Shown piece after piece: positions 19,169 to 35,112 of a stretch of DNA of 64,000 nucleotides. How positions within the stretch are numbered: position 1 is the first letter of the stretch; each line of letters opens with the position of its first letter. Origin of the DNA: an uncultured Planctomycetia bacterium (lineage in GTDB: Bacteria > Omnitrophota > Gorgyraeia > 1-14-0-20-64-10); NCBI GenBank assembly GCA_964373715.1, contig CAYJVR010000001.1, positions 21,164-85,163 on the forward strand. Direction: 5' to 3'. The notes beneath the pieces are model-generated. The model ran no database searches. It had not been told where the DNA came from and saw only the letters and a program-made list of their open reading frames with translations. The position numbers were made by a program, and so were the translations under genes.

Positions 19169-19181
19169 GGGCTACTAAATT

Positions 19182-20291
19182 ATGGGCGCGACAATCATTA
19201 CTCTGCAAGGAGAGACAGCGTTAAAGCCCCAGATGGAGCAGATGCTGAAGCTGATGGTCGAACGGAGAGCCTCAGACCTCCACCTGACAGTGAATTCCCA
19301 CCCGATGCTGCGTGTGGACGAAGGGTTGATCCCCTTAACCGAGTTTCCGGTTTTTTCCGGCGAAGACACGAGAGTTTTTGCCTACAGCCTGTTATTACCC
19401 GAGCAGAAAAAAATGTTCGAAACCAATAGAGAGCTCGACATCTCGTTTGGCGTCAGCGGCATGGGCCGCTTTCGCGTTAACGTTTTTCTCCAGAGGGGAT
19501 CGGTGAGCGTGGCTCTGCGGCTTTTACCGGCAGAAATACGAACATTTGAGCAATGCGGCCTGCCCGGAAAAATCATGGAAGAACTGTGCCGGAGAAAGAG
19601 GGGACTGATCCTGATTACCGGTTCCACTGGGAGCGGAAAATCCACCACGATGGCTTCGATGGTCGAGTGGATCAACAGCAACCGCAGTTGCCACATTATT
19701 ACGGTGGAGGACCCGATCGAGTACGTTTATAAGAATAAAAAAGCGATTGTCGACCAGCGGGAGGTAGGGATGGACACCCATTCTTTCGGCAACGCTTTAA
19801 AGCATATGCTTCGGGAAGACCCCAATGTGATCCTGATCGGAGAAATGCGCGACCTCGAGACGATTGAGTCGGCTCTCAACATCGCGGAAACAGGGCACCT
19901 TGTGCTGGCGACCCTGCACACGAACGACGCTGTCCAGACGGTGAACCGCATCGTGGATGTTTTTCCCTCTCACCAGCAGCAGCAGGTGCGCGTCCAGCTT
20001 TCCTTCGTTTTGCTGGCGGTTATGACCCAGCAGCTGATTCCAAAAGCGGGTGGAATGGGCCGCGTTCTCGGGATAGAAATCCTGATGGCCAATCCGGCTG
20101 TCCGCTCGCTGATCCGTGAAGGGAAAGCGCACCAGATTTATTCGGTGATCCAGACCAGCCATCGGGAAGGGATGAGGACGATGAACCACTCGTTGGCCGA
20201 GATGCATGTCCGAGGTGACGTCTCCTATGAAGAGGCCTTGGGGCGCTCATCCGATCCGGAGGAATTCCTGCGTTTGATTCATCACAAATAA
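19182..20291 (+). CDS. pilT: Type IV pilus retraction ATPase PilT
   Basis: 369 aa. Walker A GSTGSGKST, Asp box, His box (ATLHTNDA), and the PilT-family AIRNLIREGK-like motif. Confidence 0.9.
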   Translation: MGATIITLQGETALKPQMEQMLKLMVERRASDLHLTVNSHPMLRVDEGLIPLTEFPVFSGEDTRVFAYSLLLPEQKKMFETNRELDISFGVSGMGRFRVNVFLQRGSVSVALRLLPAEIRTFEQCGLPGKIMEELCRRKRGLILITGSTGSGKSTTMASMVEWINSNRSCHIITVEDPIEYVYKNKKAIVDQREVGMDTHSFGNALKHMLREDPNVILIGEMRDLETIESALNIAETGHLVLATLHTNDAVQTVNRIVDVFPSHQQQQVRVQLSFVLLAVMTQQLIPKAGGMGRVLGIEILMANPAVRSLIREGKAHQIYSVIQTSHREGMRTMNHSLAEMHVRGDVSYEEALGRSSDPEEFLRLIHHK

Positions 20292-20328
20292 AGAACCGAA
20301 GGGTAAGCCATGTCGCTGCGGGGGATGG

Positions 20329-20763
20329 ATGATAGCAAAAAAATTGGGCGAACTCCTGGTGGAGCGGAAAGTGATCTCCCCGGAGCAATTAAGCGAGGCA
20401 TTTAAAATTCAGCAGGAGAAGGGCGGCTTGCTGGGGCAGATCCTCGTTGAGCTTGGCTATTCCACGGAGGAGGCTGTCGCCCAAGCGCTTACCGCCCAAT
20501 ACGGTTTCCCGTACCTTCCGCTGAAACATTACGCCATTGACAATGAACTCTTAATCCTTATCCCGGAGAACGTCGCGAAGCAGTATTGTCTGATCCCCGT
20601 CGATAGGATTGGCAACACTCTCACGGTGGCGATGGCGGATCCGTTGAACGCGAAGGCGGTTGAAGACATCGAGATGCTCAGCCGCTGTTCCGTGCAGGTG
20701 TTTGTGACTACGATGAGCGATGTCATTGAGGCGATCGGGCGTTGTTATGGAGCCAAGCCATGA
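20329..20763 (+). CDS. Stand-alone MshEN / GspE-N-terminal (T2SSE_N) domain protein, a putative c-di-GMP receptor
   Basis: 144 aa. KKLGELLVERKVISPEQLSEAFKIQQ and LLGQILVELGYSTEEAVAQALTAQ resemble the two 24-residue MshEN c-di-GMP-binding motifs (RLGxxLVxxGxIxxxxLxxALxxQ). Ends in an ATGA overlap with pilB. Confidence 0.7.
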   Translation: MIAKKLGELLVERKVISPEQLSEAFKIQQEKGGLLGQILVELGYSTEEAVAQALTAQYGFPYLPLKHYAIDNELLILIPENVAKQYCLIPVDRIGNTLTVAMADPLNAKAVEDIEMLSRCSVQVFVTTMSDVIEAIGRCYGAKP

Positions 20764-22496
20764 CCAAACCGGACCCCTTGCAGAAAGCTTCCATGGGGAT
20801 CAGCGAGCGGCTTGCTGGAGTTCTTTTGAGCGAAAAACTTCTCAAGAAGGAGGATATCGAGAAGGCGTTGGCCCTTCAGCGGGAAAAGGGAGGATCTTTA
20901 AGCCAGGTTCTGATCGAGATGGGATTGGTGGAGGCCAAGGCCCTCGCGGCGGTTTTAAGCCGCACACTTCATATACCGATTATAAGTCTCTCAAAAATGG
21001 AATTGGATCCCGACATGGCGAAGCTGATTTCCCGGAAGTTGGCCATCCATTACCAAATTATTCCGGTTTCCCTCATGGGGAAACAGCTCACCGTGGTGAT
21101 GGCCGATCCGATGAATATCCTCGCGCTGGACCATCTCAGCCAGGCGACCGGAATGATCCTGACCCCTTTGATTACCACGCAGGAGGAGGTTCAAGACGCG
21201 CTCAACAGGTTATACGGAGGGGTCATCGCCGATACTCTGCAGGAACTTCAAGGAGGGCCTGTTTCTATCGAGGTTCTTGCCGAGAGGAAAGAGTCCAGCG
21301 GGTCGGAACAGGTCGAGGATCTGATCCGGTTGACAAAGGAAGGTCCTGTTGTTCGGATCACGAACGCGATCCTGACGGAAGGGGTGACTTTGAAGGCAAG
21401 CGATATATTGATCGAACCCTTTGAAAGGCGCCTTCGGATCCGTTACCGGGTCGATGGGGTCTTCCGGGAAGGGCAGTCGCTGCCTCCGGCGATGCATGCT
21501 GGTGTCGTATCGAGGATAAAAGTGATGTCGAACCTGAACATCGCCGAGCACCGTTTGCCGCAGGATGGGCGGATTAAATTCTCAGTGGCGAGTCGGGGTG
21601 TCGATTTCCGCGTTTCTGTCATCCCCACCTATTATGGTGAAAAAGTCTGTCTTCGGATCCTCGATAAGAGCCAAGTAAGGCTCGATGTGGACAAGCTGGG
21701 TTTCGATCCTGAGCCTTTGAGGGTTCTAAAGAAGGCGATGATGCACCCGCACGGGATGGTTTTGATCACCGGGCCGACCGGTTCCGGGAAAACAACGACT
21801 CTTTACGGACTGCTCAGCTTGGTGGATCGGCCGGAAAAGAATCTCGTGACTGTTGAGGATCCGGTGGAATACGACCTGCCGGGGATCAACCAGGTAGCCG
21901 TGCGTTCCGAAATCGGGCTGACCTTCGCTACGGTTTTGCGTTCCATCCTCCGGCAGGACCCGAATGTCATCATGATCGGCGAGATACGGGATGAAGAGAC
22001 GGCAGATATCGCGGTCAAGGCGGCTTTAACCGGGCACCTCGTACTTTCCACACTGCACACGAACGATGCGATCGGTGCGGTGGCCCGGTTGGCCAACATG
22101 GGGATCGAGCCTTATTTGATCGCCTCCTGCGTTCTTTTAGTCGGGGCGCAGAGGCTGCCTCGCCGCGTCTGTCCGCGCTGCAAGCAGCCGGTCCGGCATT
22201 CGAGAGAGCTTCTTGAGCGGATGGCGCTGCCTCTCGATGGCAGTTACATGAAGGGGAAGGGATGCGTCGAATGCCGCAGTACCGGGTTGGCCGGCCGTAT
22301 CGGCCTGCTTGAGGCTGTTCCGATCACCTCGGACCTGCGAAGATTGGTTGACCAGGGGGCTTCTTCCGTTAAGTTGCAGGGGGCTGCTCGGGCTGCCGGC
22401 TTTTATTCGCTCAGAGATTATGCGGTGGCAAAGGCAGTGGCAGGTTTGATCCCTCTGGAAGAGGTGGCCCGCACAACGGTTGGATTTCAAGAATAA
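20760..22496 (+). CDS. pilB: Type IV pilus assembly (extension) ATPase PilB/GspE, copy 1
   Basis: N-terminal GspE_N domain, Walker A GPTGSGKTT, Asp and His boxes, and a tetracysteine Zn motif (CPRC...CVEC). Confidence 0.9.
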   Translation: MTKPDPLQKASMGISERLAGVLLSEKLLKKEDIEKALALQREKGGSLSQVLIEMGLVEAKALAAVLSRTLHIPIISLSKMELDPDMAKLISRKLAIHYQIIPVSLMGKQLTVVMADPMNILALDHLSQATGMILTPLITTQEEVQDALNRLYGGVIADTLQELQGGPVSIEVLAERKESSGSEQVEDLIRLTKEGPVVRITNAILTEGVTLKASDILIEPFERRLRIRYRVDGVFREGQSLPPAMHAGVVSRIKVMSNLNIAEHRLPQDGRIKFSVASRGVDFRVSVIPTYYGEKVCLRILDKSQVRLDVDKLGFDPEPLRVLKKAMMHPHGMVLITGPTGSGKTTTLYGLLSLVDRPEKNLVTVEDPVEYDLPGINQVAVRSEIGLTFATVLRSILRQDPNVIMIGEIRDEETADIAVKAALTGHLVLSTLHTNDAIGAVARLANMGIEPYLIASCVLLVGAQRLPRRVCPRCKQPVRHSRELLERMALPLDGSYMKGKGCVECRSTGLAGRIGLLEAVPITSDLRRLVDQGASSVKLQGAARAAGFYSLRDYAVAKAVAGLIPLEEVARTTVGFQE

Positions 22497-22497
22497 G

Positions 22498-24225
22498 ATG
22501 GCAAACTCATTAAGACAGAAAGTCGTAGATCTCCTTGTCGAGACGTGCGGAGTGGACCGGGAGAAGCTGGAAACCGCGCTGAAATCGCCCAAGGCGAGGG
22601 AGAAGACCCTCAGCCAACTTCTGGTGGAGGAGGGTTTGGTCAGCCAGCAGGACCTTCTCGCCACGCTCGCCGAAGGACTTCACCTGCCGCCGATCAATTT
22701 GGCCCGCTATCAGATTGATCCAGCCCTCTCTGAAGTAATCCCTGAAAGGATGGCCCGCCAATACAGGGTTGTACCCGTTTCCCGGATCGGCAACCGATTG
22801 TCGGTGGCGATGGCCGATCCGATGAATATTTTGGCCTTGGATGATCTGGCGATGACGACCTTGCTCGACATCAGCCCTGTCATCGCGGCGGAAAGGGATG
22901 TGGATCAGGCTATCCAAAAGCTGTATCATCCCGGCTTCTCTCCGGAGGCTTTGAACACCGGTTCCCAGGCTGAATTTATGGGCGGTTCGGAGGAGATGGA
23001 GGAGGAATCCGATTCAGAAGAGGATGTCGTGGATCTGACCGCCTTCGGCATGGCCGGCCAAAAAGCTCCGATCGTTAAGGTGGTGGATATGATGATCATT
23101 GAAGCCTTGAAGGCGCGCGCCAGCGATATCCATGTCGAACCCTATGAGAAAGATATCAGAATCCGGTATCGGGTGGACGGTTCCTTGATAGAGGTTTTTC
23201 GCCTGCCGAAGAGGCACCAGAGCGCTCTCGTCACGCGCTTAAAGATCCTTTCCAAGCTGGACATCACGGAGAACCGACTCCCGCAGGATGGGCGTTTTAA
23301 AGTCCGTTCGGAGAACAGGGAGGTGGACTTCCGCGTTTCCGTGCTTCCGATCTCCTTTGGGAATAAGGTTGTCATGCGCGTGCTGGACAAAGGCAATCTC
23401 TCGGTGGGATTGGAAAAGCTGGGACTGCTGCCGGAGTCCCGCGCCGTTTTTGAGAAGGCGGTTGCCCGGCCCTACGGCATGCTTCTGATCACGGGTCCGA
23501 CGGGAAGCGGGAAATCCACGACCCTCTATTCCGTGTTAGCCCAGATGAATCAGCCGGTCCGAAACATTATGACGATCGAGGACCCGGTGGAGTACCAGGT
23601 GGAGGGTATCACGCAGGTCCAGGTCAACCCGGAGATCGGGCTGACTTTTCCCTCCACGCTGAGGTCATTTCTCCGGCAGGCTCCTGATGTGGTTTTTGTG
23701 GGTGAGATAAGGGACGGCGAAACGGCCGATATCGCGATCAAGGCCTCTCTCACCGGGCAGGTTGTCCTCTCGACTCTTCACACGAATGACGCCTCCAGCT
23801 CCATCACCCGGCTTATAGATATGGGGGTGGATCCCTTCCTGCTGGCTTCCAGCCTTATTTTTGTGGCCGCCCAGCGTTTGTGCCGCCAGGTCTGCCCTCG
23901 GTGCAAAATCCCCGAACAGGTGCCGCCGGAGCGCCTTAAAGCGGCGGGCCTGAAGCTGGAGAAGAACCAGCTCCTTTACAAAGGGCAGGGCTGCAGCTAT
24001 TGCCGTCAAACAGGATTTAGGGGACGCTTCGCTATTTTAGAGGCGATGCTGGTGGACGACGCGATCCGGGAGATGATTATCGCTCGAAAGTCATCCGATG
24101 AGATTAAAACATATGCCGTGGAACGCGGGATGAGAACGCTTCGGCAGGAAGGGCTGGTTCATCTGCTGGATGGCCGGACCAGCTTTGATGAGGTGCAGAG
24201 GGTAACCAGCGAAGACGAGGAGTAA
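22498..24225 (+). CDS. Second PilB/GspE-family ATPase paralog (copy 2)
   Basis: Same architecture: GspE_N, Walker A GPTGSGKST, CPRC...CSYC tetracysteine. About 45-50% identical to copy 1 by eye. An alternative ATG at 22480 is possible. Confidence 0.9.
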   Translation: MANSLRQKVVDLLVETCGVDREKLETALKSPKAREKTLSQLLVEEGLVSQQDLLATLAEGLHLPPINLARYQIDPALSEVIPERMARQYRVVPVSRIGNRLSVAMADPMNILALDDLAMTTLLDISPVIAAERDVDQAIQKLYHPGFSPEALNTGSQAEFMGGSEEMEEESDSEEDVVDLTAFGMAGQKAPIVKVVDMMIIEALKARASDIHVEPYEKDIRIRYRVDGSLIEVFRLPKRHQSALVTRLKILSKLDITENRLPQDGRFKVRSENREVDFRVSVLPISFGNKVVMRVLDKGNLSVGLEKLGLLPESRAVFEKAVARPYGMLLITGPTGSGKSTTLYSVLAQMNQPVRNIMTIEDPVEYQVEGITQVQVNPEIGLTFPSTLRSFLRQAPDVVFVGEIRDGETADIAIKASLTGQVVLSTLHTNDASSSITRLIDMGVDPFLLASSLIFVAAQRLCRQVCPRCKIPEQVPPERLKAAGLKLEKNQLLYKGQGCSYCRQTGFRGRFAILEAMLVDDAIREMIIARKSSDEIKTYAVERGMRTLRQEGLVHLLDGRTSFDEVQRVTSEDEE

Positions 24226-24229
24226 AGCG

Positions 24230-25432
24230 ATGCCTGTTTTTGCTTATGTTGCTAAGATGGACGATGGCCGGACGGTGAAAGGCTTTCTGGAGGCCCACTC
24301 CAAGTCAGCGATGCTCGAAACGCTCCACAGGCAGGGGCTCATCGTTCTGGAGGTTAATATCAAGAAAGTCGCCGGTTCGCCCGCGTTCGGCGGGAGGGTA
24401 AAAGCGGATGACCTGGCTATTTTCTCCCGGCAGCTGGCCACCCTCGTGGATGCCGGTATTCCGATCGTCGGCGGTTTAGAGGCGGTCTCGGACCAACTCG
24501 AAAATCCGCAGCTCCGGCAGGTGGTGATCAAGATCTATGAGGCGGTAGAGGGGGGCATGAACCTGACGGCTGCCATTGCCAAGCAGAACGCCGTTTTCTC
24601 CCCTTTGTTCGTCAACATGGTCAGGGCAGGGGAAGCCAGCGGCCATTTGGCCGATGTTTTGGACCGGCTGGCGACTTATCTTGAAAAGAGCGCCGCCCTT
24701 CAGAGGAAAGTCAAATCGGCCTGTATTTATCCGGCGATCGTTATCTCGATGGCTCTGATCATCACCACGCTGCTGATGATCAAAGTGATCCCCGTTTTTA
24801 AACAGATGTTCGAGCAGTTGGATGTGGATCTTCCTCTCCCGACACAGATTCTCATAGCCACGAGCGACCTGATGGCGGCCTTTTTCCTTCCCGGAATCGG
24901 TTTGATCATCGCGGCGGTTTTTCTTTTCCGCCGCCTGATTAAGACGCCCAATGGGCGCCTTTGGTTCCACCGCTTTTTGCTGAAAGCGGTCATTGTCGGG
25001 CCGATCGTTCGGAAGGTCGCGATTGCCAAATTTGCCCGCACCCTTTCCACGCTTGTCAGAAGCGGTGTTCCGATCCTTTTGGCGCTGGAGATTGTTTCCG
25101 AAACGTCGGGGAACCGCGTGGTGGAGCTGGCTGTTCTTCAGGTGAGGGCCTCGATCAAGGAGGGGGAAAATATCGCGGCACCGCTGGCGGCCAGCAAGGT
25201 TTTCCCCCCGCTTGTTGTCCGGATGATTGCCGTGGGGGAGCAGACCGGCCGGCTGGATGACATGCTCACCAAGATTGCCGAGTTTTATGAAGATCAGGCA
25301 GATACGGCAATAGCGGGACTGACTAGCGCCATCGAGCCGTTGATCATTGCCGTTTTAGGTGTTGTGGTGGGAGGCATCGTGATTTCGATCTTCCTGCCGA
25401 TCTTCAAACTGACGCAGGTATTTTCAGGCTAG
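24230..25432 (+). CDS. pilC: Type IV pilus inner-membrane platform protein PilC/GspF
   Basis: 400 aa with two repeated GspF domains and 3 TM segments. Lies directly after the ATPases. Confidence 0.9.
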   Translation: MPVFAYVAKMDDGRTVKGFLEAHSKSAMLETLHRQGLIVLEVNIKKVAGSPAFGGRVKADDLAIFSRQLATLVDAGIPIVGGLEAVSDQLENPQLRQVVIKIYEAVEGGMNLTAAIAKQNAVFSPLFVNMVRAGEASGHLADVLDRLATYLEKSAALQRKVKSACIYPAIVISMALIITTLLMIKVIPVFKQMFEQLDVDLPLPTQILIATSDLMAAFFLPGIGLIIAAVFLFRRLIKTPNGRLWFHRFLLKAVIVGPIVRKVAIAKFARTLSTLVRSGVPILLALEIVSETSGNRVVELAVLQVRASIKEGENIAAPLAASKVFPPLVVRMIAVGEQTGRLDDMLTKIAEFYEDQADTAIAGLTSAIEPLIIAVLGVVVGGIVISIFLPIFKLTQVFSG

Positions 25433-26028: not shown

Positions 26029-26101
26029 GCGCTAGCTTAACGCTAGCATGCCCAAACATGCAGGGGCGGCGACCCAAAGGTTGCCGCCCCTGCATGTTTG
26101 G
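26029..26101 (+). terminator. Compound stem-loop after the major pilin gene: a 6-bp gctagc hairpin plus a perfect 19-bp-stem hairpin. No T-tract, so it is more likely an attenuator or mRNA-stabilising element.
   Basis: gctagc(26031-36)-ttaac-gctagc(26042-47). Then ccaaacatgcaggggcggc (26052-26070) pairs with gccgcccctgcatgtttgg (26083-26101) around a 12-nt loop. Confidence 0.55.
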
Positions 26102-26119: not shown

Positions 26120-26533
26120 ATGATTTTTCCCGGGGTGGATAAAAGAAGGCGCAGTGCGTCAGGCTTCACGCTGATCGAAGTATTGGTCGGCATGGCGGTT
26201 TTTGTCACGGCGCTTGTCGTTTTGTTGGGGATATACACCGGTATCGCTGCTCTCAGGGAATCGGGCCGGAATACGACCCAAGCGGTGGCGGATGCGAGGG
26301 CCGTTCTGGAAGCGATGAGGGACAGGTCGTCGACCGGTTTGTCTAACGTAACTGCGCAGGATTGGACCCAGTGGGCCGAAGATAACGGGTTGACCTCTCT
26401 TGACAGTGAGGTGATCACTGTCGATTACGTGGATACGTCAGCAGATCCGCTGGAAATCACGGTTCAGGTGGATTGGGTGGAGCGGGTAAGGGAGCGCTCG
26501 ATGACCATCAGCACTTTGATGACGCAGAGGTGA
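26120..26533 (+). CDS. Minor pilin / pseudopilin (GspI/PilV-like)
   Basis: 137 aa. MIFPGVDKRRRSASG followed by FTLIEVLVGMAVFV prepilin signal. The ORF-track start at 26048 lies inside the hairpin and was rejected. Confidence 0.7.
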   Translation: MIFPGVDKRRRSASGFTLIEVLVGMAVFVTALVVLLGIYTGIAALRESGRNTTQAVADARAVLEAMRDRSSTGLSNVTAQDWTQWAEDNGLTSLDSEVITVDYVDTSADPLEITVQVDWVERVRERSMTISTLMTQR

Positions 26534-26535
26534 GA

Positions 26536-27090
26536 ATGGATTTGATCCGGCACAGAGGCGGTTTTACCTTGATGGAGATGATGGTGACTATGTCGATCGT
26601 CGTCGGCATTTCAGGAGTGCTTGTGGCGGTTTTTCGGATGAACCAGCAATGCTGGGAGGTGGCTCAGGCCCACCTGTCTGTTTCGATGGAGCTCCGGAGG
26701 GGGATGGACGAGATGAGCCGGGAGTTGACCTCCACGCAGGTGGCCCAGGTGGATATCCCGGCGGACGGTACCTGGTACCCCTCGATCACCTTTTCGGTGC
26801 CGGAGGATGTGGATGGGGACGGAACCGTGCTGGATTCCTCCGGGGCGATGGAGTGGTCGGACTCGATTACCTACTCGTTAGGGGGGGAGACTGAGGAACA
26901 GGCGCTCCGGGAACAGGACGGGGAGTTGGACCGGGTTATCGCCAACGGCGTGACGGAACTTGAGTTTAAAAGAGACGCGGCGACTCCGACTGTGGTCGAA
27001 GTGCGCATCTCGGTTGAAAAGGTTGTTCATACGAAAGACTTTCCTCATACAGCGACCTTGTCAACCCGTGTTCGGCTGAGGAATAACTGA
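26536..27090 (+). CDS. Minor pilin / pseudopilin (GspJ/PilW-like)
   Basis: 184 aa. MDLIRHRGG followed by FTLMEMMVTMSIVVG prepilin signal. Size and position fit a J-type minor pilin. Confidence 0.7.
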   Translation: MDLIRHRGGFTLMEMMVTMSIVVGISGVLVAVFRMNQQCWEVAQAHLSVSMELRRGMDEMSRELTSTQVAQVDIPADGTWYPSITFSVPEDVDGDGTVLDSSGAMEWSDSITYSLGGETEEQALREQDGELDRVIANGVTELEFKRDAATPTVVEVRISVEKVVHTKDFPHTATLSTRVRLRNN

Positions 27091-27127
27091 TTTTGGGTAT
27101 AGTTTTCATAACAAGCGGGGGTGTGCG

Positions 27128-28177
27128 ATGAAAACCGTTTGCGGTAGGCGGACGAAAGAACGGGGCTTCATTCTGCTGACCCTCTCCATGATGCTTCCTG
27201 CCTTTCTCATCTTGGCTGGAGGGGTGATGGCGTATGTGTGGACCGATTCGAGGGCCTCGCAAAGATCCGAAGCCTCCATGCAGGCGCTTTATTTGGCGGA
27301 GGCGGGGGTCGATCAGGCGATATTGGAGCTCACCGATAATTTTGACTGGGCCGGAGGCGAAGGGAATCTCGAGAGAGCGGGGGAATACAGCGTCACTGTG
27401 GAGTCGCTGCCGAACAGCCGGAGGAGAATCCTTTCCCAGGGAACGAGCGATAATCTGGGCGCCCTCGTGGGCCGGACCGTCGAGGTGATTGTGGAGCAGT
27501 ACCCGCCTCCCGATTTCTACGAATACGTCATCTGGGCGGCGCAGGATTTCGACCTTAAGGGCAACTCCTACAGTGTGACCGGCAAGGTCAAGCACGGCGA
27601 CACGTCGCCCACGAACAACACGGGGAATGTGATCGGGCCGATCGTCTACGACCCAAAAGCGAACCCCCTGCCGAAGCTGAGCTATCAAAAGCTCTATGAA
27701 ATGGCGCAGGGGCAGGGGAATGTCTACGATGCCGCCCGGATCGGCAACGGGCACGGCGTTTTCCCGACATCGTTCTGGTACCAGGCGCCAACCGACCCGA
27801 ACGACCCGACCACCGGGATCCCGAACATAAACTACATCACGACCGACTTGGTGCTCAACGGCAATATCGGGACGATCGGGGGATTCTTCGTTGTGGTCGG
27901 CGACGTGATTACGAATCCGTCATCCGTCGAGGATACGACGCTCAACGGAAACGGCCGGGTGGCAGGGGCCATCTATTCCAGGGGGGACTTCCGCGTCAAT
28001 GGGGGAGGAGCCAGGCTGAATGTGGATGGCGGGATCTGGGCGGGCCAGCAGGCCAGGCTGAACGGGAAAGTGACGATGACCTACAACTGGAACTATATGC
28101 ACGCGATCCAAGGGCTGAATCTCGAGCCGGATGTTACGGTGATTTCTTGGAGCGAAAGAGAGAATCAAGCGGAATAG
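27128..28177 (+). CDS. PilX_N / GspK-like minor-pilin tip-complex protein, paralog 1
   Basis: N-terminal ERGFILLTLSMMLPAFLILAGGVMAYVWTDSRASQRSEASMQALYLAEAGVDQAILEL matches the PilX N-terminal domain. Confidence 0.7.
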   Translation: MKTVCGRRTKERGFILLTLSMMLPAFLILAGGVMAYVWTDSRASQRSEASMQALYLAEAGVDQAILELTDNFDWAGGEGNLERAGEYSVTVESLPNSRRRILSQGTSDNLGALVGRTVEVIVEQYPPPDFYEYVIWAAQDFDLKGNSYSVTGKVKHGDTSPTNNTGNVIGPIVYDPKANPLPKLSYQKLYEMAQGQGNVYDAARIGNGHGVFPTSFWYQAPTDPNDPTTGIPNINYITTDLVLNGNIGTIGGFFVVVGDVITNPSSVEDTTLNGNGRVAGAIYSRGDFRVNGGGARLNVDGGIWAGQQARLNGKVTMTYNWNYMHAIQGLNLEPDVTVISWSERENQAE

Positions 28178-28216
28178 GCGGCCGGAGGTTCTTAAGTCCC
28201 GAATGAAAGGAGACCT

Positions 28217-29269
28217 ATGGCTGGAGTATGGATTCGCCTGAAATCACAAAGCGGTTTCATGCTGATCACGATTTACATGATGATTCCGTTGCTGCTTGTG
28301 ATGGTCGGGGCGATTGTGGCCTACGCGTTTTCCGATCTGCACGCCGCCCAGCGGTCGCAGGCGGACATGCAGGCGCTGTACATGGCTGAGGCCGGAATTG
28401 ATGATGCGTTGGTGCAGCTGCGGGACAGTTACAGCTGGACCGGAGGCTCCGGAGTCGGCGCTGGGGGAGAATACTCGGTCACGGTCGAGGATCTCGGCAG
28501 CAGCCGTTTGCGGGTAATGGCTACCGGGATGGCTGACAAACTGCTCGCTGCGGCGGTCAGCCATGCTGTCGAAATCATCGTGGAACAGGCTATCCCGCCG
28601 AATTTCTACGATAACGCGGTTTGGGCTTCGCAGAACCTGGATTTCAAAGGGAACGCGTATTCTGTTGCGGGGGCCGTCCGCCACGGGGATACGACGCCTT
28701 CTTCGACCGGGAACGTCAATGGGTCCGTTACCTACGATCCGGACACCAACCCGTTGCCGCGGCTCGATTTCGAACAGATCTACGAGATTGCGCAGGCGCA
28801 GGGAAATGTCTACGATGCTGCCCGGATTGGCAATGGGCACAATGTTTTTCCGACGTCGTTCTGGTACCAGCAGCCGACCGATCCGACCGACCCGACCACC
28901 GGGGTCCCGAACGTGAACTACATCACGACTGATTTGGTGCTTAACGGCAATATCGGAACGATCGGCGGTTTCTTCGTTGTCGTCGGGGATGTGATTACCG
29001 ATCCCTTCGCTGTCGAGGATACGACGATCAACGGCAACGGACAGGTTGCGGGAGCGATCTATTCCAGGGGGGACTTCCGGGTCACCGGCGGTGGAAATGG
29101 CCTGAACGTCAACGGTAGCGTATGGGCGGGAGACGAAACCCGTTTAAACGGCAAGGTGACAATGACGTACAACTGGGATTACATGCACGCGATAGAGGGG
29201 CTGGGCATCAACCCGGATGTCACCGTTATCTCCTGGCAGGATGGAGGATCGGTCCAAGAGGACGAGTAG
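28217..29269 (+). CDS. PilX_N / GspK-like protein, paralog 2 (recent tandem duplicate of paralog 1)
   Basis: About 70% aa identity to paralog 1. The C-terminal half is nearly identical, and also at the DNA level (for example 27700-27915 versus 28790-29000). Confidence 0.7.
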   Translation: MAGVWIRLKSQSGFMLITIYMMIPLLLVMVGAIVAYAFSDLHAAQRSQADMQALYMAEAGIDDALVQLRDSYSWTGGSGVGAGGEYSVTVEDLGSSRLRVMATGMADKLLAAAVSHAVEIIVEQAIPPNFYDNAVWASQNLDFKGNAYSVAGAVRHGDTTPSSTGNVNGSVTYDPDTNPLPRLDFEQIYEIAQAQGNVYDAARIGNGHNVFPTSFWYQQPTDPTDPTTGVPNVNYITTDLVLNGNIGTIGGFFVVVGDVITDPFAVEDTTINGNGQVAGAIYSRGDFRVTGGGNGLNVNGSVWAGDETRLNGKVTMTYNWDYMHAIEGLGINPDVTVISWQDGGSVQEDE

Positions 29270-29314
29270 CGCTCAAAGAACCCGCCACATAGATTATTTC
29301 GGAGGTGAATCCGG

Positions 29315-30448
29315 GTGTACTCAACGAGGAAAGCCCAAAAAGGGTTTGTTCTGGTCACGATCTACCTGCTGGTCCCGCTGCTGATCATTATGTCGACCAG
29401 CTTGGTCGCTTTCGTGCTCCAGGATATCCGTTCCGCCCAACGGGTTTGGGCGGCCACGGAGGCTTTTTTTCTGGCGGAGGCCGGGATTGACCGGGCTATC
29501 GCGGAGCTCAAAGAGGATGCCGCCTGGACGAGTGGGTTTTCTGAGGAGCCGCTGAACTCGATGGGAACCTACACGGTGACCGTGGAGGATCTCGGCAGCG
29601 GCCGGTTCCGGCTCACGACCGAGGGCAGCAGCGAGCTGCTTTCCGCGCCGGTTGTCAGAACGATCGAAGCGGTTGTGGCGGTGTTTCCGGCCGGCCTGTT
29701 CAATTTCGCCCTCTTCGGCGATGACAGCGTTACGCTGACCGGCAACGCCATGACCGACAGCTATGATTCCTCCGAAGGTTCGTACAATGCGGCGACCGCC
29801 GGTTCCGAAGGAGATGTCGGCACCAACGGGATTGCTGCCGGAAGCATCACGCTGAACGGAAATGCCCGCGTGAAGGGAGATGCGCTGATCGGGTCTGAGG
29901 GGGATCCGGATACCGGCATCACGATGACCGGCAACTCCGTGATCACGGGGATTCAGGGAACCGAGGATGAAGAGAAGGATTTCCCCGAGGTGACGATCCC
30001 TGAGGGGGTTTCCAATGGCGGTTCGTTGAGCGTGTCGGGCAACAAGACCAAGACCTATCCTGCTGGCACCTACTGGTGGTCGAGCATATCGGTTTCCGGC
30101 AACGGTCGGCTGCAGTTTACCGGCCCCGCGGTTGTTTACGTCACCGGCAATGTGAGCATCAGCGGAAACGGGATAAACACCTCAAGCAACCTGCCGACCA
30201 ACCTGCTGATTTTCGTTGCTGGGAACCAGAGCGTCAGCGTTTCGGGCAACGGCAATTTTTACGGCGGGATTTATGCCCCGGACTCCAACGTGCACATTTC
30301 CGGCAACGGCGCTTTTTACGGCGCCGTGATGGGCAAGACAGCGACCAACAACGGCAATGGCGGGGTCCATTACGACACGGCTTTGCGGGACGCCGTTTCC
30401 AGCGATGGTGCCGAAGTCGATATCCTTTCCTGGCGGGATCTTTCCTAA
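29315..30448 (+). CDS. PilX_N-domain protein, paralog 3, with a divergent C-terminus rich in T/SGN repeats (beta-helix-like)
   Basis: GTG start with a GGAGG RBS. N-terminal QKGFVLVTIYLLVPLLIIMSTSLVAFVLQDIRSAQRVWAATEAFFLAEAGIDRAIAEL. C-terminal repeats VTLTGNA / VSGNG / ISGNG. Confidence 0.65.
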   Translation: MYSTRKAQKGFVLVTIYLLVPLLIIMSTSLVAFVLQDIRSAQRVWAATEAFFLAEAGIDRAIAELKEDAAWTSGFSEEPLNSMGTYTVTVEDLGSGRFRLTTEGSSELLSAPVVRTIEAVVAVFPAGLFNFALFGDDSVTLTGNAMTDSYDSSEGSYNAATAGSEGDVGTNGIAAGSITLNGNARVKGDALIGSEGDPDTGITMTGNSVITGIQGTEDEEKDFPEVTIPEGVSNGGSLSVSGNKTKTYPAGTYWWSSISVSGNGRLQFTGPAVVYVTGNVSISGNGINTSSNLPTNLLIFVAGNQSVSVSGNGNFYGGIYAPDSNVHISGNGAFYGAVMGKTATNNGNGGVHYDTALRDAVSSDGAEVDILSWRDLS

Positions 30449-30503: not shown

Positions 30504-31619
30504 TTGGACTTAGGCCTATTCTGCGGTAGAATTCAGACCAAGGTGCCTAATCCACTTCTAGCGCAGATAAAAGCCTTGCCGACCCGTTGGGCAGGCGTAG
30601 GAAAGTTGGTTCACCGTTCAACAGCCTGCATCGGTTTGGATGTCGGTTCTTTTTCCCTCAAAGCCCTTCTTGTTTCCGGTTCTTCCGCGGTTCCCCGGCT
30701 CAAGCGGATGGCGCTGAAAAGTTTCCCGCCGGGCGCTGATCAGCGGCAAAAGGCCGAGATCATCCGGTCGGTTGTGAATTCGTTGGATGGCGGCCGGGAA
30801 GTTTCACTTGTGACCGGTGTCGGAGGAGTCGGCACGGTACTCAGGTCTGTTTCCCTCCCTGAAATGTCCGAAAAGGAGCTGAAAGCGGCCTTCTCTTTTG
30901 AGGCGGAAAAATATATACCGTTCAAACTGGAGGAGACCTTCTTTGATTCGTGCATTCTAGGGAAGCGGCCGGGTGGGCGCATGGAGGTATTGGTAGCGGC
31001 GGCCAGGAAGGAGCTGGTCAACGCCCATTTGGAATTGTTGTCTGCCGCGGGGGTTACCCCTCATATTGTGGATTTGGAGTCTTTGACGTTGGGCAACGCA
31101 TGGGGGTTTTGCCGCCCGGAAGCCGTCGGGGAATCGATGGTGACGGCCCTTTTGCACGTGGGGGCCAGAGGGACCATCCTGGATTTCTTTGAGGGGTCTC
31201 AGCTGCAGTTTACCCGTGAGATTCCGATCGGAGGGGATTCTTTCACGAAGACGATTGCCGAGAGTCTTCGGCTAAATTCTGCTGAGGCGGAAAAGGTAAA
31301 ATGCCAGCAGGGAGACCGGGCGCCGGAGGTTCGCGCTGCGCTGGAATCTTTGTGGGAAGATTGGCTTGCCCAATGCCGCGTGTCGTTTGATTTCTTTGAG
31401 AACCAGTTTGGCCGCAAGGTAGAGCGGCTTGTGCTCAGCGGCGGGTCTGCCCGGCTTATCGGTTTTAAAGACAAGATACTCCATTCCGTTGGTTTACCCA
31501 CCGATGAATGGAATCCTACAGCCGGGTTTTTATCCGATGTAGATCAGCAGGAACTGGTTTCCGCCGGGTCTTCGCTGGCGGTGGCGGTTGGTTTAGCAAT
31601 TCGTGGAGTTGCCAAATGA
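30504..31619 (+). CDS. pilM: Type IV pilus assembly protein PilM (actin-like)
   Basis: IGLDVGSFSLKALLV ASKHA-fold N-terminus. The true start is probably a non-ATG codon near 30606. Confidence 0.85.
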   Translation: MDLGLFCGRIQTKVPNPLLAQIKALPTRWAGVGKLVHRSTACIGLDVGSFSLKALLVSGSSAVPRLKRMALKSFPPGADQRQKAEIIRSVVNSLDGGREVSLVTGVGGVGTVLRSVSLPEMSEKELKAAFSFEAEKYIPFKLEETFFDSCILGKRPGGRMEVLVAAARKELVNAHLELLSAAGVTPHIVDLESLTLGNAWGFCRPEAVGESMVTALLHVGARGTILDFFEGSQLQFTREIPIGGDSFTKTIAESLRLNSAEAEKVKCQQGDRAPEVRAALESLWEDWLAQCRVSFDFFENQFGRKVERLVLSGGSARLIGFKDKILHSVGLPTDEWNPTAGFLSDVDQQELVSAGSSLAVAVGLAIRGVAK

Positions 31620-31641
31620 GGAGTTTCTTTCGAGGCCGCGC

Positions 31642-32442
31642 ATGATTCGGATCAATCTGCTGCCGTCCGGTGTCCGCAAGTCAAGATCCCCCCTTCGAGT
31701 CAGCGTTCCTTGGTTGGAGATTCTTATCCTCATCGTTGCGGTTACGGCTGTTTATTCGGGATGGATTCTGGTTTCTTCCCAGGTTCAAGGAAGGAAACTC
31801 AAGAGGTTGACGGACCAATGGGAGAAGATGAAATCCGAACGGACGAAGGTTGAAACAACGGAAGCGGCTCTGCGTGCTTTTGAGAACAGGGAAGCGATCC
31901 TTAAAGAGATTAAATCGCCTCAGTCCCAGTGGGCGCCTCGCCTGAATATCCTGGCGGATTCCATCGTTGCAAAACTTTGGTTTACTTCACTGGAATATAA
32001 GCCTGAAGAGGCTTCTGACGAAGATGCAGAGGGAGGGAAGAAGAAGCGGGTTAAGCGCAAGAGTGGGGACAAAGCAGGGGAGTCGCCCCAGGCCAGTAAG
32101 AAGGCTGAGTCAAAGAAAAAGAAGAAGAAAGAATCTTCCAAAAGATCGGGTAAAGAATCCGCGGGCAAAGAGGGAAAGTCAAAAAAACCTTCGTCCCGGC
32201 AGGGCCAAGGGCAGGCGGTAGCCAGCGTCCCGCCTCCCGCGCTTATCTTAAAGGGCGCCTCTTTTGTGGCCGAGCAGGGAAATGGAGCGGCCGTTAACAG
32301 GTACATCCAGAATCTGGAGCAGCACCCCGATTTTAAGCTCCTCTTTAAAGGACTGAAATTGAAAACAATCGAACATCGGCAGATCCAAAAGGAGGAGGTT
32401 TCCGATTTTACTCTTGAGCTGTATCTCAAAGGCGGCAAATGA
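31642..32442 (+). CDS. pilN: Type IV pilus assembly protein PilN, with a lysine-rich low-complexity insertion
   Basis: MIRINLLP N-terminal PilN motif plus a TM helix. There is an about 65-aa K/S/E-rich insert (nt about 32005-32205). Confidence 0.8.
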   Translation: MIRINLLPSGVRKSRSPLRVSVPWLEILILIVAVTAVYSGWILVSSQVQGRKLKRLTDQWEKMKSERTKVETTEAALRAFENREAILKEIKSPQSQWAPRLNILADSIVAKLWFTSLEYKPEEASDEDAEGGKKKRVKRKSGDKAGESPQASKKAESKKKKKKESSKRSGKESAGKEGKSKKPSSRQGQGQAVASVPPPALILKGASFVAEQGNGAAVNRYIQNLEQHPDFKLLFKGLKLKTIEHRQIQKEEVSDFTLELYLKGGK

Positions 32443-33035
32443 TGCTTAATCTGAAGCTTCCTTTGCTCGAGGGGAAAGAGTGGAAAGCGATCGTTGCCGG
32501 CGCGGGGATTGTGGTGGGGCTGTTTGTCTGGTTGCAGCTCTTCATCATCCCGCAGCGCAGCAGTTTAATGGACAGCTGTTCTCGAAATAAAACGATTGTG
32601 AAAGATATGGCCCTTCTTAAGGAGAAGATTGCCAAGTTTCCGGAGATGGAGAAACAGTTGATCCAGTTGGCGGGCCAGTACGACCCCCGGATGGTAACGA
32701 CCCCTCCGGAGAAGCAGCTGCCTGAGATTCTCGAAGTGATTGCTCAGGCCGCGAAAGCATCGGATGTCCGCCTGCTGGGCGCGAAGCCGAGGATGGAGAT
32801 CAGCGATCTTTCTCCCGGCTCATCCGGTTTCTTGGAGCTTCCTGTTCAAGTGGATGCCTCCGGAGGGTATCATCAATTGGGTCTTTTCTTGGATTCTTTG
32901 GAGAGTTCGAGGATGCTTGTGCGTGTGCATGAGTTAAAGATACAGACCAACCCGGAAGATATATGGCATCATCAGGCAACATTCGTTCTCTGGACCTATC
33001 TGTTCCCTGTAGTAGGAGACCAGTCAAAATCGTGA
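32439..33035 (+). CDS. pilO: Type IV pilus assembly protein PilO
   Basis: 198 aa, N-terminal TM and coiled coil. ATGA overlap with pilN. Sits in the pilMNOPQ order. Confidence 0.8.
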   Translation: MMLNLKLPLLEGKEWKAIVAGAGIVVGLFVWLQLFIIPQRSSLMDSCSRNKTIVKDMALLKEKIAKFPEMEKQLIQLAGQYDPRMVTTPPEKQLPEILEVIAQAAKASDVRLLGAKPRMEISDLSPGSSGFLELPVQVDASGGYHQLGLFLDSLESSRMLVRVHELKIQTNPEDIWHHQATFVLWTYLFPVVGDQSKS

Positions 33036-33418
33036 GGAGAGTTCTTGCTGCGGCACTAGTTTTTTGCTCGTGCGCAGGTTTTCTGTCTGTTCAGCCGGCG
33101 TTCGCAGAATACCTCCCGAAAGGGAAAAGGGATCCGTTTGTCCTTTTGATTACCCCGGATGGGCAGAAGGTTTATCCCCCCGGTTTGGATGAGGAAGTGG
33201 CCGCCAGGGTGGACAGCTTCGCTCTTCAGGGGATTGTTTTTGATCCGAACGGAGATTCTTTTGCTGTGATCAACGGCGAGGTTGTCCATGAAGATGACGA
33301 GCTGGATGGGATAATAATCTTGAAGATAGACCCGGACATGGTGACGGTGCTGGTGGACGGCAAAGAAGACCAGCTTACCCTCAGCCAGCCAATAAAGGAG
33401 AATGAGACAGAGCCATGA
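33032..33418 (+). CDS. pilP: Type IV pilus assembly protein PilP (signal-peptide/lipoprotein-like)
   Basis: GTG start overlapping the pilO stop. Signal peptide VRRVLAAALVFCSCAGF, then a PilP-like beta domain. Confidence 0.65.
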   Translation: MRRVLAAALVFCSCAGFLSVQPAFAEYLPKGKRDPFVLLITPDGQKVYPPGLDEEVAARVDSFALQGIVFDPNGDSFAVINGEVVHEDDELDGIIILKIDPDMVTVLVDGKEDQLTLSQPIKENETEP

Positions 33419-35112
33419 GGTCAAACCTTGGTTGGAGAACGACAGTGTTTTTCGTGTGCGGTGCGGTGATTCTCGTGCAGGTCGAGCCGTTTGTCCGGAT
33501 GGCGGACGCCGACTCTGAAACGAACCAGCATGAGAGATCCAAGGTGGCCTCGTTAAGCCTGCAGGCTTCTGATGGAACTCCGGTTCCGGATAACCTGATA
33601 ACGCTTGATTTTAAGGAAGCGGACGTCCAGGTAGTCCTTCAAGCTTTGGCTAAAAAAGCGAGTATAAATATCGTCACGGCGTCCGATGTCACAGGGGCTG
33701 TCAGTCTTCACCTGAAGGATGTCACGCTGGAACAGGCGCTCGATACGATCGCCAAGACCTATGGTTTCGGCTATGAGAAGGACGGCAACGTGGTGCTGGT
33801 TTCCACCTTGGAAGAGTTAAAGGCGCGGCGTGAAACGATGAAGGACCTGGTGGAGATTGAGCCGGTGGTCACCAAAATCATTGAGCTCAGGTACATTGAC
33901 GCCGCCGACGCGCAGGATTTTCTTGAGCCTCAGCTGACCGCCCGCGGGCGAATTTCCGTCTTGGAAATAACCGGGCAAAAGGGATGGGCTTTCGGGACGG
34001 CCAAGCTGGGTAAGACCACGGATGACAAGCAGCGTAAACGGATACAGAGGGAGTCGGCCCGGTCCAAGGTGATTGTGATTACCGACACCCCGACGACCAT
34101 TGACCGTTTGGAGAGGATTTTGGCGAAGGTGGATGTCCTTCCGAAACAGATCCTCATCGAAACGCGCGTGATGGAGGTCAGCCGGGATTTGCTGCGCGAT
34201 ATTGATTTGGGCGCTGTGACCGGAGCAACCGCGGGAAGTTCTACGCTCACCGTGAGCAACCAGCCCGCCGCTAAGCAGGGCGGCACCTCAATCTCTGAAT
34301 TTGCGGGGACCCTTCTGCAGAGTTCCTTCACCCCGTCGACCTTTAACCCCGCCACGACAGGGCTGACCGCCGCGACGGCCGGGGCGCAGGTTTTCTTTCA
34401 GCAGTTGCGCGGGACGCAATTCTCCGCTTTGCTCCGGCTCTTAGAAGAGGATGTGCGCACAAACACGCTTTCCGCGCCGAATATCCTGACTCTTTCGGGC
34501 CAGGAAGCGAGAATCTTGGTCGGAGAGAAATACCCGATCCTAAAGACAGAAGTCGCCGGAACCTCGACGACGACCACCACGACAAGCCTGGATTACTACC
34601 AGAACATCGGTATTGAATTGTTCGTGGTTCCTTCGATAGGCGGTGAGGAACATGTGAGCATGCTGGTCCATCCGATTATTTCCACACGGGTCGGAACGGT
34701 CGGGACGAACGCTTACCCCATCATCAACACCCGTGAGGCTGAGACCCAGGTTGTCCTCGAGAAGGGGGATACGATCGTGATCGGCGGGTTGCTCAAGGAT
34801 CTCAAGGCCAAGTCAAGGATCGGGTTGCCCTTTCTTGGCAAGTTACCTCTTATAGGGCCTTTGTTTGCCCGTACCACGGAGGATATCGCTAAAATAGATT
34901 TGTTGATCTTCATAACGGCCAGAGTGATTGAGCCCGGAATGCTTTCTCCCGAAGAGATGGTGAGGCTGCAGCAGCAGTACCAGGAGTTTGTACATGAGCG
35001 GTTGAGCAGGAAAGGTAAACGGCGCCGTTCTGCGCCGGTTGCCTCGGGCGTTGCTTCGTCGGCAGCCACTCCTGTGTCGGGCAATAAGGGAGTTCTTTAC
35101 CAGAAGCCCTAA
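33415..35112 (+). CDS. pilQ: Type IV pilus secretin PilQ
   Basis: 565 aa. Signal peptide, N0/secretin_N-like domains, and a C-terminal secretin domain (VVLEKGDTIVIGGLLKDLKAKSRIGLPFLGKLPLIGPLF). Confidence 0.85.
   Translation: MRSNLGWRTTVFFVCGAVILVQVEPFVRMADADSETNQHERSKVASLSLQASDGTPVPDNLITLDFKEADVQVVLQALAKKASINIVTASDVTGAVSLHLKDVTLEQALDTIAKTYGFGYEKDGNVVLVSTLEELKARRETMKDLVEIEPVVTKIIELRYIDAADAQDFLEPQLTARGRISVLEITGQKGWAFGTAKLGKTTDDKQRKRIQRESARSKVIVITDTPTTIDRLERILAKVDVLPKQILIETRVMEVSRDLLRDIDLGAVTGATAGSSTLTVSNQPAAKQGGTSISEFAGTLLQSSFTPSTFNPATTGLTAATAGAQVFFQQLRGTQFSALLRLLEEDVRTNTLSAPNILTLSGQEARILVGEKYPILKTEVAGTSTTTTTTSLDYYQNIGIELFVVPSIGGEEHVSMLVHPIISTRVGTVGTNAYPIINTREAETQVVLEKGDTIVIGGLLKDLKAKSRIGLPFLGKLPLIGPLFARTTEDIAKIDLLIFITARVIEPGMLSPEEMVRLQQQYQEFVHERLSRKGKRRRSAPVASGVASSAATPVSGNKGVLYQKP

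Follow-up and report, generated by a model that had tools for sequence, protein, structure and literature searches.

Three tandem solenoid-bearing minor pilins, putative alternative tip subunits, in the type IVa pilus operon of an uncultured Omnitrophota bacterium

A 64,000-nucleotide stretch of DNA from an uncultured member of the Omnitrophota (henceforth the window) contains a pilus operon in which three adjacent genes code for K-like proteins that unite a type IV pilin domain with a triangular β-solenoid. The three proteins are homologous and share one fold, their genes lie behind a single pair of I-like and J-like minor pilin genes, and their copy number varies among relatives. We consider it probable (roughly 0.6) that they are tip minor pilins of the kind exemplified by Thermus ComZ and the cyanobacterial PilX proteins, most likely acting as alternative first subunits of the filament.

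The five minor-pilin genes form a block between the major pilin gene and pilM of the operon (Table 1). All five open reading frames given in the preliminary description (137, 184, 349, 350 and 377 aa) are present on the forward strand, and independent gene calls on public contigs yield the same five lengths. They are separated by gaps of 2, 37, 39 and 45 nt, each is preceded by a Shine-Dalgarno-like motif, and within this tight operon no internal promoter-like or terminator-like sites were found above the shuffled expectation. The major pilin, whose best NCBIfam matches are the N-termini of PilA and GspG, is followed directly 3' of its stop codon by a hairpin without a T-tract, which might have a role in setting the ratio of major to minor pilins.

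Table 1. Features of the pilus operon, in coordinates of the window
Feature	Position	Strand	Remarks
PilT, stand-alone MshEN c-di-GMP-binding domain, two PilB-type ATPases, PilC	19182..25432	+	motor/platform
Major pilin, 146 aa	25577..26017	+	KG/FTLVE class III signal; N_methyl 1.2e-9
Perfect-stem hairpin, 23-nt arms, 4-nt loop	26052..26101	+	inverted repeat I1, 96% complementary
I-like minor pilin, 137 aa	26120..26533	+	Glu5 present, PilV/GspI-like; N_methyl 5e-6
J-position (PilW/GspJ) minor pilin, 184 aa	26536..27090	+	Glu5 present; N_methyl 2.6e-4
Paralog 1: K-like solenoid pilin, putative tip subunit, family A copy 1, 349 aa	27128..28177	+	
Paralog 2: K-like solenoid pilin, putative tip subunit, family A copy 2, 350 aa	28217..29269	+	
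Paralog 3: K-like solenoid pilin, putative tip subunit, family B, DUF7305, 377 aa	29315..30448	+	
PilM, PilN-like, PilO, PilP-like, PilQ secretin	30504..35112	+	PilM TIGR01175 170 bits vs cut-off 133

The machine encoded around this block is a type IVa pilus, because PilT (TIGR01420, 474 bits against a cut-off of 319) and PilM exceed their curated cut-offs. The other motor and platform genes have PilB, GspE and PilC as their top matches, PilQ reaches 244 bits with TIGR02515, under the cut-off of 284, and the Pfam labels on an identical public contig agree with the assignments from PilM to PilQ. A search for PilY1 among the larger open reading frames of the window turned up only housekeeping genes, no prepilin peptidase (peptidase A24) was detected among the window reading frames scanned, and the locus contains no GspH/FimU-like gene.

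Both small proteins encoded ahead of the K-like genes contain the prepilin N_methyl motif. The labelling of the 137-aa protein as GspI/PilV-like gains support from its membership of a PilV/GspI-like set of positional orthologues, in which TIGR02523 PilV is matched by five of seven members (best 4.8e-12), XpsI by four of seven and GspI by three of seven; the window protein itself scores under the cut-offs (PilV 21 bits vs 52; GspI 20.5 vs 44). The 184-aa protein matches gspJ TIGR01711 weakly at its N-terminus (3.7e-4; 20.4 bits vs a cut-off of 64.85), and one of its orthologues an N-terminal match to PilW at 0.021. A PDB profile search, a Pfam scan of its orthologues and a homologue search return N-terminal pilin matches only, and the J domain is absent from all 12 homologues. 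In relatives the gene for this type of protein always follows the I-like gene, as for instance in a locus with the order GspH-I-J-PilX_N (L011); its gene position and size mark it as a putative J-like pilin.

The N-termini of the three K-like proteins (RG/FILLTLSMMLP, SG/FMLITIYMMIP and KG/FVLVTIYLLVP, with a slash at the end of the leader) have the features by which type IV pilins are recognized, namely a short basic leader ending in glycine and a hydrophobic α-1N helix of some 20 residues. The glycine at position -1 can be anchored in 105 of the 119 sequences of family A and in 91 of the 101 sequences of family B, and glutamate does not figure among the frequent residues of position +5 in either family. 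AlphaFold models of paralogs 1 and 3 (pLDDT 91 and 94) have the same build, with a helix of about 60 residues, a GspK-like four-stranded sheet, a β-solenoid resembling that of ice-binding proteins, and a last strand (residues 337-344 and 362-375) that bears a near-invariant tryptophan. The pilin-like N-terminal helices foreseen in the preliminary description are present in these models, where residues 9-70 and 2-67 are helical with pLDDT >90. Going by the order of secondary structure elements rather than by coordinates, the last strand probably packs on the pilin sheet.

The best whole-chain structural match is Thermus ComZ, with which the K-like proteins have in common the joining of a GspK-like pilin fold to an ice-binding-protein-like triangular β-solenoid. 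The top-scoring fold matches are ice-binding proteins of the DUF3494 type, which are soluble. At the level of sequence, the profiles of families A and B retrieve nothing significant from the PDB. With GspK the K-like proteins share a pilin fold that lacks Glu5; the large α-helical domain inside the sheet of GspK is not found, and an all-β solenoid follows the fourth strand instead. The GspK/T2SS_K model NF037980 gives 14.7 and 16.4 bits (cut-off 130) and covers only the N-terminal ~60 residues. A Pfam scan yields no match for paralogs 1 and 2, and for paralog 3 a PilX_N (PF14341) score of 15.7 bits, below the cut-off of 25.5, as well as a match to DUF7305 (PF23981) over residues 260-359 with 68.3 bits (cut-off 27), a domain for which a literature search returned no paper. 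Precomputed PF14341 matches exist for many homologues of family B and for a few of family A.

All three proteins share the N-terminal domain, as had been proposed (paralog 1 vs 3, 35% identity over 144 aa, E 5e-29; profile-profile comparison of families A and B, 99.9% probability). Other statements of the preliminary description on their relationship have to be revised. Paralogs 1 and 2, said to be about 70% identical, have 64% protein identity over their full length (paralog 2 scores 518 bits with the family A HMM), and their C-terminal halves, thought to be near-identical DNA, are 75% identical in DNA and 77% in protein, with a best 90-nt window of 89% and a longest exact common run of 23 nt. 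The C-terminus of paralog 3 had been called unrelated, but the C-terminal parts of the two families align over 105 columns (95.5%, E 1.6e-8) and have the same fold, and a comparison of the whole-length profiles yields an alignment of 322 columns (probability 99.95%, E 2.7e-38). Between the two families, the first half of the solenoid can no longer be aligned. The C-termini are thus related, because the paralog 1 model contains a solenoid and the 64% identity of paralogs 1 and 2 extends over the full length. Paralog 3 does contain the (T/S)GN repeats ascribed to it, with 10 [T/S/N]GN motifs against three each in paralogs 1 and 2, and the β-helix deduced from them is present, but it is not peculiar to this protein.

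Recombination between paralogs 1 and 2, which the supposed near-identity had implied, has left no gene-conversion signal. Identity at four-fold sites does rise to 0.64-0.79 in codons 181-240, but a like rise (0.56-0.69) is seen in cross-genome pairs with both family A genes of the closest relative (locus L014), so that the peak reflects a constraint on codons or sequence and not recombination. In the N-terminal half the four-fold site identity is only 0.27, with the proteins 51-77% identical; judged from their sequences, the two paralogs go back to an old duplication and are subject to purifying selection. The pilin halves of the two are 51% and the solenoid halves 77% identical, and in family A 52 of the 140 solenoid columns are at least 90% conserved, as against four of 55 in the pilin sheet. 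A model with a conserved dock and variable adhesins predicts neither of these patterns.

A metagenome scan with the alignment as query provided 45 readable loci for gene-order counts, and a scan of genome contigs with paralog 2 gave only two loci. The commonest layout is I-J-A followed by PilM (31 of 45); rarer ones include I-J-A-X, I-J-B-A, I-J-X-B-B-B-A and duplicated I-J-K modules, and detached I-J-B-B modules also occur. The number of K-like copies per locus ranges from 1 to 5, the five being found in L032. Conservation of the three genes as a set had been put forward as a test of the original proposal; they are not conserved in this way, and the order A-A-B is seen only in the window and in L014, the first family A gene of which is 71% identical to paralog 1. 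Families A and B occur together in the window, in L014, in L009, L015, L002 and L063, and in the P0014 locus, and hence in several distant lineages, which could equally mean that they work jointly. Family A comprises ~119 clusters at 50% identity (E <1e-30) and has no Pfam model. Most relatives being single-copy, the triple is a local gene expansion and not a new system.

We propose that one K-like subunit, acting with the PilV/GspI-like pilin and the J-position pilin encoded ahead of it, would nucleate the filament on the PilC platform and would then stay at its distal end. Each such subunit is built from a prepilin-type leader ending in [K/R]-G, an α-1 helix that is long, hydrophobic and free of Glu5, and a small GspK-like sheet, with the triangular solenoid placed between the fourth strand and the final C-terminal strand. 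The solenoid might cap or plug the tip and contact the target, in place of PilY1, for which the locus has no gene. The three K-like proteins would compete for the same I/J base, and one operon could in this way produce pili with different tips; with all three genes transcribed together, alternation could only be of a stochastic or post-transcriptional kind. That K caps are interchangeable on a single I/J base is plausible: the variation in copy number, the lack of Glu5 and the steric argument made for ComZ are consistent with it, and the 35% identity that families A and B retain in the pilin domain, along with the diverged first half of the solenoid, fits a shared dock with different outward faces. 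The more specific notion that a shared I/J base and several co-expressed, Glu5-less solenoid caps give rise to mixed tips through stochastic choice of the first subunit is tentative and of rather low probability.

Alternatively, the K-like proteins (the whole trio, or no less than family A with family B) might join the I/J pilins in a single multi-solenoid tip complex, their solenoids packed alongside one another into a compound cap or claw. Such a complex would suit a single operon with short gaps and internal promoter or terminator signals no higher than chance, the recurrence of the A and B pair outside the window and L014, the B-B pairs that stand behind one I-J pair in L010 and L012, and the canonical tip positions left unfilled by a locus without GspH/FimU-like or PilY1-like genes. 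However, a single family A gene suffices in the I-J-A loci that make up the majority, and a hetero-oligomer is therefore not obligatory; the absence of Glu5, a trait of the first-assembled subunit, extends to all copies; the steric argument for ComZ admits a bulky subunit at the very tip only (PMC6561018); and where a second I-J pair is present it brings its own K-like gene (L008, L033, L036 and L086), which points to separate tip modules. We regard a compound tip as rather unlikely.

It is still less likely that the extra copies are redundant, retained for dosage or drifting, with only one K-like protein of importance. One copy is indeed the norm across the observed range, and the same conserved solenoid motifs are kept in both paralogs 1 and 2. 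Against this, the three reading frames are intact, each with its own ribosome-binding site, the duplication has persisted, as A-A-B is also the order in L014, paralogs 1 and 2 have been maintained by purifying selection since an old duplication, and families A and B are deeply diverged up to the loss of alignability in the first half of the solenoid.

That the K-like proteins are not filament subunits at all, but membrane-anchored or secreted β-helix proteins (such as surface adhesins, or ice-binding-like or glycan-binding factors) merely located in a pilus operon, is highly improbable, as the top fold matches to soluble proteins, the scant Pfam record of the three paralogs and an orphan family A gene adjoining a phosphate-transport operon are offset by a leader, ~60-residue helix and GspK-like sheet that constitute a pilin module, by the nearly constant position of the gene after an I-J pair and before pilM, and by the fact that the closest whole-chain structural match, ComZ, is itself a pilin.

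The Omnitrophota are uncultured nanobacteria, nearly all of which encode type IVa pili that are thought to attach the cells to a host or prey (PMC10066038); none of the papers we found describes their pilus tips. If the models are a fair guide, the tip subunit of these pili would gain a structural identity, that of the ComZ/PilX solenoid kind, at a locus without PilY1. The unusual conservation of the family A solenoid points to a conserved ligand, and the variation in K-like gene number per I/J pair provides a natural experiment on the choice of tip complex. Both the architecture and alternative tip sets have already been published and will not surprise specialists on pili; stochastic caps or a compound tip, if true, would represent a route of tip diversification not yet described, in a phylum believed to rely on attaching to host cells.

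In being Glu5-less candidate first subunits that would cap a GspI-GspJ (PilV-PilW) base, and in the position of their genes after those for the I-like and J-like proteins, the K-like proteins resemble GspK/XcpX and the Pseudomonas PilX. The insert of GspK is α-helical and lies between the third and fourth strands (PMC6561018). Unlike it, that of the K-like proteins is a β-solenoid after the fourth strand, and the GspH/FimU-like gene is missing from their locus. Myxococcus xanthus reportedly has three minor-pilin/PilY1 clusters, and the likeness lies in the notion that one pilus machine can be served by multiple gene sets for a tip complex; there, each complete minor-pilin set has a PilY1 of its own and a separate locus, whereas in the window only the K-like gene is multiplied and PilY1 is absent.

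The DUF3494 ice-binding proteins (for example 3WP9, 7BWX and 4NU2) have only 14-21% identity to the K-like proteins, which match none of the ice-binding Pfam families and, unlike DUF3494 proteins, have the fold grafted onto a pilin. Ice binding is not the expected function, and the authors of the ComZ structure likewise doubted it for ComZ (PMC6561018). ComZ of Thermus thermophilus (PDB 6QVI) is a GspK-like pilin in which a solenoid like that of ice-binding proteins is inserted ahead of the last strand, and has been argued on steric grounds to fit only at the tip (PMC6561018). Its gene also lies among minor pilins and its type of fold is the same; however, it is larger (crystallised chains of ~500-520 residues), its solenoid of ~380 residues is longer and more irregular, and it has no detectable sequence similarity to the K-like proteins. 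ComZ is, moreover, a DNA receptor that is present in single copy and has PilA2 as its partner, whereas the window has three putative tip pilins in tandem. The cyanobacterial PilX_Com and PilX_EPS are minor pilins in the PilX position with the same solenoid insert, which has been proposed to plug the tip in place of the absent PilY1, and where a genome has more than one type of PilX, these define distinct pilus tips (bioRxiv 10.64898/2026.02.12.705559). The K-like proteins are alike in design; in cyanobacteria, however, each PilX subfamily co-occurs with a PilV subfamily of its own, in many cases at separate loci, whereas in the window three K-like genes stand behind one I-like and J-like pair in a single operon.

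Five co-oriented ORFs, encoding proteins of 137, 184, 349, 350 and 377 aa, lie between the major pilin gene and pilM exactly where the preliminary description had placed them, and their lengths are reproduced by gene calls on independent public contigs with the same sequence. Each is preceded by a Shine-Dalgarno-like motif. The first begins 102 nt past the major pilin stop, the spacing among the five is 2-45 nt, and promoter-like or terminator-like sites within the block are not above shuffled expectation, so all five appear to share a transcript with the other operon genes. The surrounding genes encode a type IVa pilus machine: PilT (474 bits against TIGR01420, cut-off 319), a stand-alone MshEN c-di-GMP-binding domain, two PilB-type ATPases, PilC, PilM (above its family cut-off) and, downstream of PilM, a PilQ-type secretin. 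The other window ORFs tested are housekeeping genes, with neither PilY1 nor a prepilin peptidase among them.

Features of the window, and of loci in relatives (L and P numbers); I, J, A and B denote I-like, J-like, family A and family B genes, and X a more distant K-like protein
Feature	Location	Remarks
Operon start	17693-24225	GGDEF protein, PilT, stand-alone MshEN domain, two tandem PilB-type ATPases each with MshEN
Major pilin gene	25577-26017	
Hairpin	26052-26101	23 bp, 96% complementary, 4-nt loop, 35 nt past major pilin stop, without T-tract
I-like pilin	26120-26533, +	137 aa
J-like pilin	26536-27090, +	184 aa
Paralog 1	27128-28177, +	349 aa
Conserved solenoid stretch	27668-28090	Paralog 1 residues 181-320
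Paralog 2	28217-29269, +	350 aa
Paralog 3	29315-30448, +	377 aa
pilM	from 30504	
PilN-like protein	31603-32442	Long Lys/Ser/Glu-rich low-complexity insert (…KKKRVKRKSGDKAGESPQASKKAESKKKKKKESSKRSGKESAGKEGKSKKPSS…)
Second major-pilin paralogue	39536-39979	147 aa, 55% identity to the major pilin
I-J-A-X or A-X		Rarer layout
I-J-B-A		Rarer layout
A-B	P0014 locus, L015	
X-A-B	L009	
B-B behind detached I-J pair	L010, L012	
I-J-X-B-B-B-A	L032:1-8017	Five K-like genes after a single I-J pair; largest expansion found
Duplicated I-J-A-I-J-X modules	L008 (1445-5838), L033, L036, L040, L046, L077, L086, L049	Reversed in L049
Orphan family A gene	L006:10001-11035, L007, L021	Beside phosphate-transport operon
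MazE/PIN toxin-antitoxin pair	L013:9033-9688	
Contig breaks inside paralog 1	L004:1-457, L005:1-465	

L008, L009, L013 and the P0014 locus, all distant Omnitrophota loci, carry the gene set of the operon start as well; the set suggests regulation by c-di-GMP and the use of two extension motors. By attenuating read-through or stabilising the pilin mRNA, the hairpin may set the ratio of major to minor pilins. The second major-pilin paralogue is about 13.5 kb downstream of the operon, with housekeeping genes on either side. PilN-position genes are shorter in some relatives (188 aa in L009, 206 aa in the P0014 locus). The + strand holds all long ORFs that were tested or look real throughout positions 1-64000, and the full 64 kb shows positive GC skew.

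Both small proteins possess a prepilin motif with Glu5 (SG|FTLIE and GG|FTLME). The 137-aa protein scores under the cut-offs of the PilV, GspI and XpsI models; as its positional orthologues match PilV in five of seven cases (best 4.8e-12) and GspI in three of seven, the label "I-like" appears reasonable. Matches of the 184-aa protein are confined to its N-terminus, and "J-like" is based on size and gene order, as exemplified by a deltaproteobacterial locus with a GspH-like protein, proteins of 135 aa and 194 aa, and then a PilX_N protein.

Among the three large, K-like proteins, pairwise alignment gives 64% identity between paralogs 1 and 2 over their full length, and about 35% between paralog 3 and each of them across the first ~140 residues. 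We term the paralog 1/2 type family A, for which a Pfam search returned no match, and the paralog 3 type family B, which matches DUF7305 (68 bits). Homologues come overwhelmingly from Candidatus Omnitrophota MAGs, and both families display a basic residue and Gly ahead of the hydrophobic segment, with no Glu at +5. Profile comparison aligned 322 columns of the two families at whole length (probability 99.95%, E 2.7e-38); the pilin parts alone gave 99.9% and the C-terminal parts alone 95.5% (E 1.6e-8, last ~105 residues), while the two families can no longer be aligned over the first half of the C-terminal domain. AlphaFold2 models of paralogs 1 and 3 (pLDDT 91.1 and 93.8) predict the same layout, with a ~60-residue helix, four antiparallel strands, a long domain rich in beta structure and, at the C-terminus, one last strand; given its identity to paralog 1, paralog 2 probably shares this build. 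Thus, the beta-helix is not special to paralog 3, nor is its C-terminus unrelated, as had been proposed; its (T/S)GN repeats are real (10 [T/S/N]GN turns), and make just a more regular solenoid.

The C-terminal DNA of paralogs 1 and 2, earlier called near-identical, is in fact 75% identical, peaking at 89% in one 90-nt window, with a longest exact run of 23 nt. Their synonymous-site identity is elevated in codons 181-240; gene conversion was rejected, since the rise is equal against the two family A genes of L014, the closest relative of the window (0.56-0.69 in every pair), and hence not paralog-specific. Of three Logan assemblies from the same population, two are interrupted within paralog 1 at almost identical positions and retain its final ~150 codons, probably through assembly-graph ambiguity arising from the similarity of paralogs 1 and 2.

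To map gene layouts in relatives we scanned 14 protein-found and 80 metagenome loci with HMMs for the I-like, J-like, family A and family B proteins and the shared N-terminal domain; 45 loci were readable on both sides. The I-J-A layout accounts for 31 of these 45, with pilM next in nearly all. Among the loci scanned, the A-A-B triple occurs only in the window and L014 (71% identity to paralog 1), so the three-gene set is not a conserved one: relatives normally carry one K-like gene, and extra copies are lineage-specific. The second of the tandem modules comes with an I-like and a J-like gene of its own and encodes a much longer K-like protein (about 545-690 aa). The orphan family A gene (P0051, found in 49 blocks of the contig index) is directly behind a pst/phoU/PHO4 cluster and has no pilus gene within 10 kb. 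In L013 the toxin-antitoxin pair immediately follows the family A gene, the normal place of family B or pilM.

We propose that each K-like protein would be the first-assembled, tip-resident subunit atop the I/J base formed by the two small pilins, its solenoid acting as cap and contact surface in PilY1's stead. That several caps share one I/J base, or that one tip bears several solenoids, is a tentative reading, to which we give a probability of about one in four. The former option, close to the interchangeable K subunits of the preliminary description, is favoured by the lack of Glu5 in every copy, the applicability of the steric argument made for the Thermus thermophilus minor pilin ComZ, the sufficiency of one copy in most relatives, the existence of self-contained duplicate I-J-K modules, and the better preservation between families A and B of the pilin domain than of the solenoid's first half. 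The latter, a compound tip incorporating the K-like proteins together, is favoured by co-transcription and by the recurrence of A+B pairs across distant lineages. Neither neatly accommodates the conservation pattern of family A, in which conservation peaks in the solenoid, with 52 of 140 columns at least 90% conserved, versus 4 of 55 for the pilin sheet. The C-terminal part of the solenoid far exceeds the pilin domain in conservation and has motifs including FPxSFWYxPPTDPxDPTTGxPNV and NGNIGTIGGFFVVVGDV. Tip adhesins are not usually so conserved, which is a hint of a conserved ligand; combined with the greater divergence of the pilin half between paralogs 1 and 2, the pattern suggests that the ligand or a structural role is conserved, and speaks against adhesins that diversify rapidly. 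The original observation was largely right, and its interpretation is partly supported.

No solved relatives of the large proteins were detectable by sequence search; by structure, the closest whole-chain match is ComZ (PDB 6QVI), which Foldseek likewise places first (E 1e-7). ComZ has a GspK-like pilin fold with an ice-binding-protein-like beta-solenoid inserted ahead of its last strand, binds DNA and the neighbouring pilin PilA2, and has been argued to fit nowhere but the tip (PMC6561018). A 2026 preprint reports the same insert in all cyanobacterial PilX homologues, describes two pilus kinds primed by two PilX/PilV subfamilies, and proposes that the PilX solenoid stands in for the PilY1 plug (bioRxiv 10.64898/2026.02.12.705559). 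Type IVa pili of Omnitrophota have been linked to host attachment (PMC10066038). What is new here is the description of this architecture in Omnitrophota, together with the unannotated family A; as ComZ and cyanobacterial PilX share the architecture, the large proteins belong to the already known ComZ/PilX solenoid kind of tip pilin, locally expanded in tandem.
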